38,705 nt of DNA, from assembly GCA_031289285.1 (NCBI GenBank), contig JAITPT010000143.1, positions 1 through 38,705 of the forward strand, given 5' to 3'. Origin of the DNA: Puniceicoccales bacterium (GTDB lineage: Bacteria > Verrucomicrobiota > Verrucomicrobiia > Opitutales > UBA953). The first letter of the stretch is position 1; each line of letters begins with the position of its first letter. Positions 18,297-22,571 of the stretch are shown piece after piece. The position numbers and the translations under genes are program-made. The notes under the pieces are model-generated. The model was not told where the DNA came from, made no database searches, and saw only the letters and a list, made by a program, of their open reading frames with translations.

Positions 18297-19670
18297 CTAC
18301 ATCACCAGTTCGAACCATTCCTCGGCACAGGAACGGTCTTTTTTATCGAAGAGTGCACTTGTTATCATGTCTATCAGACGCAACGCGCCTGTGTAGCCGA
18401 CAGTCGGGAAAAAGCGGTGCCCGACACGGTCTAAAATCGGGAAGCCGACACGCACTAACGGGATGTCTTCAACCCGCGCTATATACTTCCCGTAGGTGTT
18501 GGAAACTATCAGGTCAACGGGTTCGTTCTTTATCCATTGATGTAACTCAAAAAAGTCGGACTGTTGTTTTATTTTCGCCTCTGGAACAACTGGGTCGAGC
18601 AATTCATGGAGACGTTTTTCAAAGTGATTTCCGAGACTTCCTGTGATTACATAGACAGGCTTCATCCCAAGCTCGAGGAGGAACTGCGTGTGTGCAATAA
18701 CTTGGTCGGGGTCGCCCGCGACGGCGACTCGCTTTTGGTGGAAGTATTGCTGCATGTCGCTGATGGCGTCTATAAGGCGGGCGCGGTCTGTCTCGATTTG
18801 CGCCGCGACTGCGCCGTCTTTAGAGAAAGCGCGGAGTGTCTGTATAAAAGCGTCAGTTGCGCCGACGCCTATTGGCAATTCGAGCAAGGTGGCGGGGACG
18901 TTGTGCTTCGTCTCCAAGGTGAGTGCGCCCGGGTGCCCAGTGAAATGGCCGAGGCCGATTGTGGCTTGGCTGTCGCCTGTGCTGCGGATTTCTGGCAGCG
19001 TAGTGCCGCCTTTGGGAAACATCTCGTAAGTGCCGTCGAGGCCGCCGTCGAGCACTCCCGATGTATCAGGAAGCAAGACATTTGCGACGCCCATCAGGTT
19101 GGCGAGACGTTTGATTTCGCGCATGTCGGCGGGTTCGACAAAACCCGGGATAATGTTGATTTGCTCCTTGGGCGAACTTTTCTCCGAAAGGTATTTTATG
19201 ATAGCACTCACCATGTTTGAAAAGCCAGTGATGTGCGAACCGACAAAGCTGGGAGTGTTGGCGTGTATAACGATTTTCCCCTCTGGAACAACGCCTTCTT
19301 CGGTGGCGCGTTTGACAATCGTCGGGATGTCGTCGCCGATGACTTCGGAGAGACAAGTCGTGTGGACGGCGACGATGTCGGGATTATAAATCGTGAAGAT
19401 GTTGCGGAGCGCTTGCGTCAGATTGGCGAGACCGCCAAAGACCGACGCGCCCTCCGTAAAAGAGCTTGTTGTAGCGACAACTGGCTCTTTGAAGTGGCGC
19501 GTGAGGTGCGAGCGGTGATAAGAGCAGCATCCCTGCGAACCGTGGCTGTGCGGCATACAGCCGTGGATGCCCAGAGAGGCATACATAGCACCAATGGGCT
19601 GGCAGGTTTTGGCGGCGTTCACGCGAAGCGCTTTTCGTTCGACGATTTCGGCGGTAGTGGCGTTGAGCAT
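18297..19670 (-). CDS. nifK: Nitrogenase MoFe protein beta subunit (short N-terminus type)
   Basis: From ATG 19670: MLNATTAEIVERKALRVNAAKTCQPIGAMYASLGIHGCMPHSHGSQGCCSYHR. Length is 457 aa. The longer track ORF would overlap nifD and reads through the C/A-rich leader. Confidence 0.96.
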   Translation of the reverse strand: MLNATTAEIVERKALRVNAAKTCQPIGAMYASLGIHGCMPHSHGSQGCCSYHRSHLTRHFKEPVVATTSSFTEGASVFGGLANLTQALRNIFTIYNPDIVAVHTTCLSEVIGDDIPTIVKRATEEGVVPEGKIVIHANTPSFVGSHITGFSNMVSAIIKYLSEKSSPKEQINIIPGFVEPADMREIKRLANLMGVANVLLPDTSGVLDGGLDGTYEMFPKGGTTLPEIRSTGDSQATIGLGHFTGHPGALTLETKHNVPATLLELPIGVGATDAFIQTLRAFSKDGAVAAQIETDRARLIDAISDMQQYFHQKRVAVAGDPDQVIAHTQFLLELGMKPVYVITGSLGNHFEKRLHELLDPVVPEAKIKQQSDFFELHQWIKNEPVDLIVSNTYGKYIARVEDIPLVRVGFPILDRVGHRFFPTVGYTGALRLIDMITSALFDKKDRSCAEEWFELVM

Positions 19671-19750
19671 ATTGTGTGTGTGTTGTTTTGTTGTTGTTTG
19701 TTGTGTTGCTTTTTTGTTAAAAAGAGTGTATGTTAAGTGTGTGTTAAAAG

Positions 19751-21514
19751 TTATCCACGTTTCCAATTTTTTGCGGCACCTTCATCTTCGAAGCCACCGC
19801 CGCGAACGCGCGGCCTATAGACGGGTTTGGGCGGGACGGTGGGGTCGCTTTTCCAAGGAGCAGTGACAAGTCGCCAGACTTTTGTGTTCACCATGCGGTC
19901 TATTTCCTTGTAGAAATTCCCCGCTCCCGTGAAGGCTGCGTAGGGGCCGCTGTAATCGTAGCTGTGCAGCTGTTTGCACGGCACACCGAGTTTCTCTATG
20001 ATGAACTTCTCTTTTATCCCGGAGCCGATGACATCCGGCTTGTAGATTTCTATGAGCTTCTCCATTTCGTGGTGCGAAATATCGTCTATCACAAGACTCT
20101 CTTTGCGCATCTCTTTCATCATGCCTTCGTAGTCGCGGAAAGAAAATCCGCCAGCTTCCAACGCAGCTTTTTGCTCCTCCGTTTTGCGCGGACGGTAGCG
20201 TGTGGGGTCGGCTTCGACGGTAAGTTCCTCGATGTTACGCGAGTCGGCGTCAATTTTTATAGTGGGGAGGACATCGCGGCCTTCGTAGTCGTCGCGGTGT
20301 GCAAACTCATAGCCAGCAGCGATAACGGTCATTCCGATGTCGCGGAAGAGGTCTTGATAATGGTGTGCGCGCGAGCCGCCGACAAAGAGCGCGGCGGTTT
20401 TTCCGGCGCAGCGCGATTTGACGTCGTCCATGATGGGGCGCAGCACCGACAACTCTTGTGCGATAACTTCTTCAACACGGTCGGTGAGTTTTTTACTGTC
20501 AAAAAACTTTGCGATTTTTCGCAGCGATTTTGCGGTTGAGTTAGCGCCTATGAAGTTCACTTTGAACCAGGGAATACCGAACTTTGTTTCCATCATATCC
20601 GCCATGTAGTTAATCGAGCGGTGGCATTGCACGACGTTGAGGTCAACGGTGTGCGCCTTCACAACTTGCTCGTAAGAAATATCGCCGGAGAGTGTGGCGG
20701 TGACATGTATGCCGCATTTGCGCAACAGTGTGTCAATCTCCCAAGCGTCGCCGCCGATGTTATATTCGCCGAGCATGTTCATACGAAACTCGGCGTCGTC
20801 GGGCGTGTCGTCAAGACCGACCATGTGTTTGAAAACGCCGTTGTTTGCGATGTGGTGCCCAGCGGATTGGGAGACGCCTTTGTAACCTTCGCAAGAGAAA
20901 CCGAAAACGTTAATTCCGAGTTCCGCTTTTGCGAGGCGGCAAACGGTGTGGATGTCGTCGCCGATGAGGCCGACTGGGCAAGTCGCATAGACAGCGATGG
21001 CTTTGGGTTTGAAAATTTTGTATGCTTCGCGAATGGCGGCGGCAAGTTTCTTTTCGCCGCCGAATATAATCTCGTCCTCCATCATATCGGTTGTCATAGA
21101 GTATTGGAGATAGTTGACATCTCCCGGGCGCGGGCGGGCGAGATTGCGGCGCGTCTGCCATGAATAAAACGAACAGCCGATAGGGCCGTGCGTTATGTGG
21201 AGCACGTCGTGCATCGGGCCGATAACGACGCCTCTACAGCCGGCGTAAGTGCAGCCGCGCTGGGTGATTATTCCCGGAACGGTGCGTGTGTTGGCCGCGA
21301 TAGGCTGCGGGCTTTCCGGGTCGTTGAGAAGAAATTGTTTAGCGCGTTTTTTCTTTGTTTTATCTGGATAAATCTCAATCATCTTCTCGCGCGCCTCGGC
21401 GGCGTTAATCGAGGCGGCGTGTTCGGCGGAACTGCCGGGCGGTGGCGGCGCAAGTGCTTCGGTGTCGGTGGCGTCAGAAACGCCGGATTCTGGTTCTGGA
21501 CTAATAGAGGACAT
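19751..21514 (-). CDS. nifD: Nitrogenase MoFe protein alpha subunit (with anaerobe-type ~50-aa insertion)
   Basis: CTYAGCRGVVIGPMHDVLHITHGPIGCSFYSW, and LNVVQCHRSINYMADMMETKFGIPW (the cofactor Cys region). Insertion EADPTRYRPRKTEEQKAALEAGGFSFRDYEGMMKEM. About 35 aa of N-terminal extension. Confidence 0.96.
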   Translation of the reverse strand: MSSISPEPESGVSDATDTEALAPPPPGSSAEHAASINAAEAREKMIEIYPDKTKKKRAKQFLLNDPESPQPIAANTRTVPGIITQRGCTYAGCRGVVIGPMHDVLHITHGPIGCSFYSWQTRRNLARPRPGDVNYLQYSMTTDMMEDEIIFGGEKKLAAAIREAYKIFKPKAIAVYATCPVGLIGDDIHTVCRLAKAELGINVFGFSCEGYKGVSQSAGHHIANNGVFKHMVGLDDTPDDAEFRMNMLGEYNIGGDAWEIDTLLRKCGIHVTATLSGDISYEQVVKAHTVDLNVVQCHRSINYMADMMETKFGIPWFKVNFIGANSTAKSLRKIAKFFDSKKLTDRVEEVIAQELSVLRPIMDDVKSRCAGKTAALFVGGSRAHHYQDLFRDIGMTVIAAGYEFAHRDDYEGRDVLPTIKIDADSRNIEELTVEADPTRYRPRKTEEQKAALEAGGFSFRDYEGMMKEMRKESLVIDDISHHEMEKLIEIYKPDVIGSGIKEKFIIEKLGVPCKQLHSYDYSGPYAAFTGAGNFYKEIDRMVNTKVWRLVTAPWKSDPTVPPKPVYRPRVRGGGFEDEGAAKNWKRG

Positions 21515-21627
21515 GTTGTTGTGTGTGTTGTTGTTAAGTGTGTGAGTGAGTGAATAAATGCAAGTTGTCGGTGATGAAAAAAAAGAGGTGTAAAAAATGG
21601 AGTTGGTGGGTGCATCTGGTGCGAATT

Positions 21628-21715
21628 AAAACAACAGAAGGCGCGGGAGAAATTCTTTCCAAAGAAATTTCGGCAAACGGATTTCTGTTCACAATCCCCG
21701 CGCCTTTTGTTGTTA
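21628..21715 (-). terminator. Long intercistronic stem-loop between nifH and nifD (possible attenuator or mRNA-stability element)
   Basis: aacaacagaaggcgcggga (21630-21648) pairs with tccccgcgccttttgttgtt (21695-21714), 18 of 19 bp. The loop holds a second near-palindrome, gaaattctttccaaagaaatttc. On the mRNA the 3' arm runs into UGUUGUUUUAAUU. Confidence 0.55.
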
Positions 21716-21746
21716 AATTATCAGCACAAGCCGCGTTTTTTTGTTT

Positions 21747-22571
21747 TTAGTTTAGCAGGCCGTAGGCCATGAGGAGGTCTTCGAGTTCTTGAATGGTGAG
21801 CGGCTTGGGGACGACGAGTTTTTTGTTTTCGTCAATCGCTTTTGCGAGGGCGCGGTATTCGTCGGCCTGTTCGCATTCCTTGTTCCATTCGATAACTGTT
21901 TTGCGGTGAATTTCGGCGCGTTGCACGTCGTTATTACGCGGCACAAAATGAATCATTTGTGTGCCAAGTTTTTCTGCGAACTTCTCAATCATTTCGCATT
22001 CGTTATCTACTTTGCGGCTATTGCAAATAAGCCCGCCGAGGCGCACGACGCCGGTTTGGGCAAACTTCAAAATACCTTTTGAGATGTTGTTCGCGGCATA
22101 CATCGCCATCATTTCGCCTGAACAGACGATATAGATTTCTTCGGCTTTGCCTTCGCGAATTGGCATCGCGAACCCGCCGCAAACGACGTCGCCGAGCACG
22201 TCATAAAACACGTAGTCGAGCTGTTCGCTGTCGTCGTATGCGCCGAGTTGTTCAAGCATGTTAATAGAGGTGATAATCCCGCGCCCTGCGCAGCCGACTC
22301 CCGGTTCGGGGCCGCCGGACTCGACGCAGAGGCTATTGCAGAACCCTGCCGAGCGGATGTCGGAGAGTTCAACGTCTTCGCCTTCTTCGCGAAGTGTATC
22401 GAGAACGGAGCGTTGGGCGAGGCCGCCGAGGAGGAGGCGGGTCGAATCGGCCTTGGGGTCGCAACCGACGACCATGACCTTTTTCCCCATCTCGACGAGC
22501 GCGGCGACGGTGTTTTGCGTGGTGGTGGATTTTCCTATCCCACCTTTTCCATAAATGGCAACTTTTCGCAT
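21747..22571 (-). CDS. nifH: Nitrogenase iron protein (dinitrogenase reductase)
   Basis: [20 protein letters not shown] (P-loop), [27 protein letters not shown], and VCGGFAMP (the cluster Cys residues). Length is 274 aa. Confidence 0.98.

Follow-up and report, generated by a model that had tools for sequence, protein, structure and literature searches.

The nitrogenase operon of a Puniceicoccales bacterium changes its base composition abruptly between nifK and the next gene, and this step, to our mind, probably arose in place (we would put the probability at about 60%), by gene-specific divergence at the silent sites of a native, inherited operon added to a generic amino-acid offset. The DNA analysed, hereafter the window, is a stretch of 38,705 nt (contig JAITPT010000143.1 of assembly GCA_031289285.1). 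It is a complete contig of a metagenome bin of 2.70 Mb (326 contigs, 75% complete, 0.04% contamination), which we label G000; G001 and G003 denote its nif-bearing congeners, and G035 a genome of another family. On the minus strand, Pfam matches give the order, in the direction of transcription, glgP, nifH, nifD, nifK, a GNAT acetyltransferase gene, a fused nifE-nifN (nifEN) and nifB. The structural genes nifH, nifD and nifK (nifHDK) have a G+C content of 52.8-54.0% and a G+C fraction at third codon positions (GC3) of 0.61-0.64, as against 64.5-67.1% and 0.73-0.81 for the GNAT gene, nifEN and nifB.

As a block, positions 18297-22571 have a G+C fraction of 0.529, compared with 0.661 for positions 13380-18277 and 0.593 for the genome. 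An earlier prediction, made from the letters of the sequence, had put nifHDK at about 50% G+C; the contrast with the neighbouring genes is real, albeit with a low side slightly less extreme than was then supposed. The same prediction placed a composition step at the nifK-GNAT border, with the switch inside the 19-nt spacer, and the computed G+C and GC3 profiles agree: a two-segment likelihood scan locates the left change point at 18271 (2-lnL interval 18242-18281), an interval covering the spacer and the first GNAT codons. The same type of scan sets the right change point at 22875 (22742-22945), upstream both of nifH and of a candidate sigma-54-type element. The difference between adjacent 4.3-kb windows is maximal at 18300, where its value of -0.135 is the largest in the contig and corresponds to about 13 binomial standard deviations (sd 0.0106).

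The ancestry of the two halves was assessed with maximum-likelihood trees of 21 taxa, built separately for NifH+D+K and for NifE+N+B (the G001 and G003 rows being composites of several contigs). G000, G001 and G003 form a clade in both, with support of 100/100 in the NifHDK tree and 100/99 in the NifENB tree, and within it G000 and G003 are sisters in both (94/91 and 100/100, respectively); quick 39-taxon trees concur. A tree of 13 ribosomal proteins from eight members of the genus likewise pairs G000 with G003 (89/93) and rejects the grouping of G000 with G001 (p 4.6e-5). Shared derived residues also favour G000+G003: in NifD+K this pairing has 15, against 9 and 5 for the other two, and in NifE+N+B it has 19, against 6 and 5. 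Thus, no phylogenetic conflict of nifHDK with its neighbours or with the species tree was found, the support in the NifHDK tree being moderate. Two metagenome contigs, L104 and L117, attest to the ability of the tree approach to detect swaps, since they switch clades between the trees: their NifHDK groups with the L024/L102/G000 clade and their NifENB with the L026/L027/L028 clade, each at 100/100. By their sequences, these two are clear cases of exchange between structural and assembly modules within Opitutaceae, and they show no large G+C step.

At the nucleotide level, nifD and nifK are 75-80% identical to their counterparts in G003 and G001, and the flanking glgP is 77-79% identical. The closest named relatives of NifK are Opitutaceae bins. 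A search for a closer NifK donor gave best identities of 82% in 185,579 species genomes, 83% in metagenome contigs and 87% in the congener G001. Among 40 relatives searched, NifK was found in three, namely the congeners G001 and G003 (two of nine congeners) and G035 (the single case among the 16 genomes searched from other families of the order). The genomes lacking nif include G007, which is sister to G000+G003 in the tree of ribosomal proteins.

The two halves also speak the same codon dialect, which is that of the genome: CTC, CGC, GCC and GGC are preferred, together with A-ending codons for Lys (AAA), Glu and Gln (CAA). The reference set of this comparison contained one wrong-strand open reading frame, the elongation factor Tu entry. 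When normalised for G+C, the dinucleotide signature (delta*) is unremarkable: among 999 genome windows, the nifHDK block ranks at the 70th percentile and the GNAT-nifENB block at the 48th. The two blocks are, moreover, closer to each other than are 85% of 396 adjacent window pairs (15th percentile of distance). Of the marks that might accompany a genomic island, we found no tRNA gene in the window, no repeat family bracketing 18270 and 22875, and no mobility domain among the 16 window reading frames scanned with Pfam. No terminator-like site was reported in the nifK-GNAT spacer.

What distinguishes nifHDK is mostly third-position C, whose frequency is 0.435 as compared with 0.594 in the other half; the balance is taken by A and T, and G is constant at 0.19. 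The original prediction had offered, as one explanation, a different codon-usage regime for highly expressed genes. As a description of usage this is apt, given the roughly 16 points less of third-position C, but the link to high expression did not survive: nifK, nifD and nifH have codon adaptation values of 0.442, 0.503 and 0.552 (percentiles 38, 61 and 77), vs 0.621 (percentile 91) for nifEN and 0.54-0.76 for the reference genes. The reference comprised 15 genes for ribosomal proteins and elongation factors; it does not include GroEL, since searching the G000 genome for Cpn60 gave no match. On the first axis of codon usage (PC1), the reference genes occupy percentiles 4-21 and nifEN percentile 9, whereas nifH, nifD and nifK are at 29, 44 and 66. 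The structural genes are therefore not in the codon regime of highly expressed genes, nor do they form part of an optimised gene set.

The direction of the silent changes was evaluated by polarising third-position differences by parsimony with a third species. On the G000 branch, nifD+K underwent 108 GC-to-AT changes and 24 AT-to-GC changes (779 columns), and nifE+N+B underwent 42 and 27, respectively (848 columns). The G003 branch is balanced, with 46/45 in nifD+K and 61/47 in nifE+N+B. The ribosomal-protein genes of G000 show the same excess, 138 GC-to-AT changes vs 37 in the opposite sense (1388 columns), or 70 vs 11 with two outgroups and 44 vs 2 with three; those of G003 show 59 GC-to-AT and 76 AT-to-GC changes. 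The GC3 of the ribosomal-protein genes is 0.672 in G000, 0.801 in G003 and 0.659 in G001.

Compared with G003, the GC3 of G000 is lower by 0.106 on average (mean difference -0.106, sd 0.073, 65 ortholog pairs). Within this distribution nifD (-0.14) and nifK (-0.16) stand at percentiles 28 and 22, and nifB (+0.02) is an outlier at percentile 95. In the comparison with G001 (74 pairs, mean +0.048), nifD, nifH and nifK are at percentiles 4, 7 and 11 and the GNAT gene is at 93. The picture is that the structural genes followed a lineage-wide drift towards A+T somewhat more than the average gene, and the assembly genes did not. In NifD+K, G000 has few amino-acid changes of its own (35 of 1019 columns), fewer than either of the other two species, implying that the proteins are under constraint. 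Protein conservation in general showed no link to GC3 against G003 (Spearman -0.10, p 0.42) and a weak one against G001 (-0.24, p 0.036).

The genome is itself a mosaic in composition, and against this heterogeneity the step is less extreme. It is equalled or exceeded on 10 other contigs, at 2.9% of the 5634 positions tested, and the maximal step of our contig ranks 11th among the 113 contigs of at least 8.6 kb. The low sides of the larger steps carry glycoside hydrolases (GH127 twice, GH88 and GH106), two heparinase-like proteins, proteins without Pfam matches, ribosomal protein L11 and NusG. The GC3 of the 1264 genes of at least 200 amino acids, called with a self-trained codon-score gene caller, has a single mode (mean 0.701, sd 0.086) and an extended tail towards low values; nifK, nifD and nifH are at percentiles 16, 20 and 21, nifEN is at 95, nifB at 72 and the GNAT gene at 52. 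In terms of G+C, nifK, nifD and nifH are at percentiles 10, 13 and 12 and the genes of the high-GC half at 79-95. Both halves of the operon hence lie inside the genome's own range of composition.

Among nitrogenase clusters the step is much more unusual. We compared 93 distinct clusters having at least two of nifHDK and at least two of nifENB. The G+C of nifENB minus that of nifHDK is 0.122 in G000, the largest value of all; the next is 0.059, and the mean of the others is 0.021 (sd 0.018). For GC3 the corresponding figure is 0.169, vs -0.110 to +0.048 in the other clusters. The 28 GC-rich clusters have a mean offset of 0.035, for which codon positions 1 and 2 (0.062 and 0.058) account entirely. 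In G000 the offsets at these two positions are 0.106 and 0.092, and the GC3 excess is added to them.

We thus favour a scheme in which the operon would have been inherited with the rest of the genome, whose heterogeneous silent-site composition would be drifting towards A+T. About one-third of the step would be a generic amino-acid effect common to any GC-rich diazotroph, in which the conserved NifHDK proteins draw less than NifENB on codons rich in G+C at positions 1 and 2. The remainder would be lineage-specific: after the split from the sister species, nifHDK may have lost C-ending codons by silent GC-to-AT changes, like the ribosomal-protein genes, while nifE, nifN and nifB may have retained a strong C-ending bias and largely escaped the drift. 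Bacterial mutation is generally AT-biased, and the strong C-ending bias of GNAT-nifENB suggests a stronger retention of preferred codons in that half. The origin in place would then reflect unequal selection on C-ending codons, or their unequal retention. Codon-level forces operate gene by gene, and for this reason the switch would fall at a gene boundary. Taken as a whole, the locus is a nif operon of the ordinary Opitutaceae type, in which the silent-site offset between the two halves is lineage-specific and unusually large.

Several observations weigh against this scheme. The step is twice that of any of the 92 other clusters, so that the notion of ordinary heterogeneity must be stretched to accommodate it, and in G001 and in locus L116 the sign is reversed, the GC3 of nifHDK being above that of nifENB. 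The NifHDK data prefer G000+G003, yet do not reject G000+G001 (approximately unbiased (AU) test, p 0.106), whereas the NifENB data do (p 2.6e-69); moreover, the NifD and NifK of G000 are more similar to those of the low-GC G001 (87.5% and 86.9% identity) than to those of G003 (85.0% and 82.3%). The exchange of a cassette, too, would leave a change point that can be placed at a gene start to within about 40 nt. Besides, the polarised sites differ by 35-48% between species, which leads parsimony to undercount parallel changes; the ortholog samples are small, the 65 and 74 pairs being drawn from congener sequence of 236 and 229 kb; and the gene calls were produced with our own simple caller.

The step might be explained in other ways, one being an assembly artefact, with the contig joining at the nifK-GNAT spacer two related populations of unlike G+C. 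The bin is indeed fragmented, and the sample contains relatives, many pieces being placed at below 95% likeness. However, a 3822-nt contig from a second assembly of sequencing run X1 (labelled termite gut metagenome and containing the G000 operon DNA) spans positions 16953-20774, across the junction, with zero differences or gaps at a depth of 10.4, the neighbouring pieces having even depths of 7.5-12.3. As X1 is the probable source run, these reads are not fully independent, and the agreement tests the assembler rather than the DNA. Run X2, from another study, has near-identical pieces; nifHDK is not among the eight of them listed. Furthermore, congeners are just 75-84% identical in these genes, too low for an assembler to merge them; a join would be expected in a conserved stretch rather than in a 19-nt spacer; and the estimated contamination is minimal. 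An artefact therefore seems very improbable. Scarcely credible, in turn, is a transfer of nifHDK from a distant lineage, which the composition step taken by itself would favour: G000 NifHDK is nested with the congeners in the Opitutaceae clade (100/100), its dinucleotide signature and codon dialect are native, and mobility genes, tRNA genes and bracketing repeats are missing in the scope given above. The original prediction had regarded nifHDK as foreign, replaced by horizontal transfer; given these marks and the congruence of the NifHDK, NifENB and ribosomal-protein trees, that suggestion is not supported. The observations it had named as arguing to the contrary are largely what we find, namely congruent NifHDK and NifENB trees and low G+C in the ribosomal-protein genes (0.567, with the GC3 given above).

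A more serious contender is homologous recombination between congeners, which would make the operon a mosaic: either nifHDK with its promoter came from an unsampled species of lower G+C, or GNAT-nifENB came from a G003-like one of higher G+C. Both edges of the low-GC block are intergenic and bound a functional cassette, and composition varies widely in the genus, from 0.575 (G001 sample) to 0.653 (G003 sample) in G+C and from 0.575 to 0.801 in ribosomal-protein GC3 among eight members. G000 resembles G001 in the composition of nifHDK and G003 in that of nifENB; the G000+G003 signal is weak in the former, as the AU test indicates, and overwhelming in the latter; swaps of this type occur in the family, as in L104 and L117; and the separate locations of the nif genes in G001 and G003 mean that modules do move. 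Set against this are the congruent best trees and the shared derived residues, which favour G000+G003 in both modules, the lack of NifK relatives above 87% (genomes) or 83% (metagenome contigs), and a nifD/nifK nucleotide identity to G003 and G001 that resembles that of the flanking glgP. In addition, the GC-to-AT excess recurs in the ribosomal-protein genes, for which import is unlikely, and G000 has fewer private amino-acid changes in NifD+K than either congener. We therefore consider such an exchange possible but unlikely. The stronger proposition, that the operon is a recombinant of two congeneric sources, in which a lower-GC nifHDK-promoter cassette meets a GNAT-nifEN-nifB cassette of higher-GC descent precisely at the spacer, and that the nitrogenase operons of the family evolve by module swapping, appears rather doubtful. 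It is also conceivable, albeit improbable, that expression is responsible, in which case nifHDK would be by far the most transcribed part of the operon and their silent sites would have been reshaped by selection for special codons or by transcription-associated deamination of cytosines on the coding strand. The ribosomal-protein genes do share the low GC3 and the drift, the third-position loss is confined to C with G staying at 0.19, nifH and nifD reach percentiles 93 and 85 when ranked for codon adaptation against genes of similar GC3, and a separate C+A-rich leader precedes each of nifH, nifD and nifK. Along the G000 branch, the four-fold sites show C-to-T changes at 28/132 in nifD+K vs 16/178 in nifENB, and G-to-A changes at 2/33 vs 2/46. 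On the other side are the codon-adaptation ranks of the structural genes, which are below that of nifEN, their PC1 percentiles, which are above those of nifEN and the reference genes, the absence of a reported terminator-like site between nifK and GNAT that would close a highly transcribed unit, and the reversed sign in G001. The untranslated parts of the transcript contain more C than G on the coding strand (63 vs 31; 32 vs 11), the opposite of a deamination footprint. Since the four-fold counts lean towards deamination and the untranslated spacers do not, we rejected it as a candidate in its own right and kept it as part of this minor alternative.

The features of the locus are collected in Table 1. 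The window contains a NifH-type Fe protein gene, adjacent nifD and nifK, and the cofactor-assembly genes nifE, nifN and nifB, as is required of a Mo-nitrogenase cluster. G000 NifH is 95% identical to the G001 copy, and G000 NifD and NifK each match NifD or NifK best in related loci, rather than NifE or NifN. Of the 135 related loci that have both nifK and nifE, 57 show a GNAT match between the two.

Table 1. Features of the nif locus and its borders (window coordinates)
Feature	Position	Strand	Basis
Low-GC block (nifH upstream region, nifH, nifD, nifK, spacer), G+C 0.525	18272..22875	-	change points and composition
glgP, 981 aa, high-GC flank upstream of nifH, GC 0.625, GC3 0.772	23117..26062	-	Pfam Phosphorylase
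Candidate sigma-54-type -24/-12 element, 98 nt upstream of nifH start codon	22669..22684	-	1 mismatch to consensus
nifH leader, C+A-rich: A46 C32 G11 T8	22572..22668	-	sequence and base counts
nifH, 274 aa, GC 0.538, GC3 0.636	21747..22571	-	Pfam Fer4_NifH E 2.7e-126, full length
Predicted stem-loop and U-rich tail, nifH-nifD spacer	21630..21714	-	inverted repeat I2; RNA fold -40.3 kcal/mol, z -3.87
nifD, 587 aa, GC 0.540, GC3 0.631	19751..21514	-	Pfam Oxidored_nitro E 2e-103; best tblastn partner of NifD regions in related loci
nifK, 489 aa as listed, GC 0.528, GC3 0.612	18297..19766	-	Pfam Oxidored_nitro E 1.6e-134
nifK-GNAT spacer, 19 nt, site of composition switch	18278..18296	-	sequence and change point
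GNAT acetyltransferase gene, 241 aa, GC 0.671, GC3 0.727, 4-nt overlap with nifEN	17552..18277	-	Pfam Acetyltransf_1
Fused nifE-nifN, 959 aa, GC 0.667, GC3 0.807	14676..17555	-	two Oxidored_nitro stretches, E 5.7e-210
nifB, 422 aa, GC 0.645, GC3 0.761	13380..14648	-	Radical_SAM and Nitro_FeMo-Co domains

In G001 the nif genes are on four contigs, carrying nifHD, nifK, GNAT-nifE-nifN and nifB (loci L017, L018, L019, L020 and L184), and in G003 they are on five, carrying nifDK, GNAT, nifE, nifN and nifB (loci L015, L016, L182, L183, L187 and L202). The scattered genes are flanked in both by housekeeping genes, including panC, ispF, ndk, arginine decarboxylase, secD, FKBP and rhamnosidases. G000 retains the intact ancestral nif order. 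Its nifE and nifN form a single frame; in G035 they are two frames with a 4-nt overlap (L014, 10344-11771 and 11768-13177), and in G001 two frames separated by about 170 nt (L018, 2893-4341 and 4508-6466).

Matches to the sigma-54 consensus are, window-wide, not above chance (15 vs 21 expected), so that it is the position of the candidate at 22669-22684 that recommends it; a similar sigma-54-type element is present upstream of nifH in the congener G001. Upstream of the nifH promoter candidate, at 22895-22960 on the minus strand, there are five closely spaced GTCCGTG-type words, which could be an activator-binding array. A C+A-rich 13-mer is found only ahead of nifH, nifD and Met33 of nifK (22579-22607, 21519-21531 and 19672-19686, respectively, minus strand), with 5 matches in the window vs 0.72 expected. 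Met33 of NifK is the first invariant alignment column and has the C+A-rich motif just upstream, suggesting that nifK probably starts there, near 19670. The exact 13-mer was not present in the loci of 19 relatives; nonetheless, the leaders of relatives are C+A-rich too and such runs are common in G000 (112), meaning that the 13-mer is not a lineage-specific mark. The predicted stem-loop at 21630-21714, directly after nifH, could act in attenuation or could stabilise the nifH message.

Dispersed short repeats occur in the window at 26260-26433, 26818-27020, 27162-27473, 2225-2832 and 6338-6995. One family has units of about 172 nt that are 93-96% identical and spread over more than 15 contigs; another, of about 310 nt, occurs in both orientations. 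Many copies are at contig ends. Their summed contig depth in run X1 reaches about 2400, vs about 10 for the operon, and they are probably the cause of the fragmentation of the bin. A 56-nt inverted repeat (88% identity, at 10760-10815 and 13283-13338) brackets an FAD-oxidoreductase and thiG pair downstream of nifB. Elsewhere in the window, positions 3600-4500 are AT-rich (G+C 0.31-0.35) and lie between two xylose-isomerase-like TIM-barrel genes.

Composition steps are routinely taken as signs of horizontal transfer, and a sharp yet native step in an operon prone to travel is a caution for island callers. G000 documents silent sites drifting at very different rates between the genes of one genome, and its nitrogenase structural genes are less codon-optimised than the assembly genes, the reverse being true in G001 and L116. 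If a module swap were the true explanation, the operon would instead show a reshuffling of the structural and assembly halves of nitrogenase among gut symbionts. A literature search found, in the portions of the sources that were seen, nothing bearing on the composition step.

Compositionally atypical genomic islands derived from horizontal transfer, and their subsequent amelioration, are an established concept. With such islands the low-GC block of G000 has in common a kilobase-scale, sharp-edged stretch of deviating G+C; unlike them, it shows a G+C within the genome's range, a native signature and dialect, a congruent phylogeny and no marks of mobility or integration. With translational selection, it shares a third-position difference that respects gene boundaries and an avoidance of G-ending codons like that of ribosomal-protein genes; unlike what such selection produces, the structural genes are less adapted than nifEN, and the change is a loss of preferred C-ending codons. 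The nearest likeness is with the nifH-nifD-nifK-GNAT-nifE-nifN-nifB clusters of Opitutaceae (such as L024, L102, L026 and L027), which have the same gene order and strand as G000 and in whose clade the G000 proteins nest. The nifE and nifN genes are fused in G000 and separate frames in G035 and G001, and the difference between nifHDK and nifENB, which in G000's direction does not exceed 0.059 (G+C) and 0.048 (GC3) in the Opitutaceae clusters, reaches 0.122 and 0.169 in G000.

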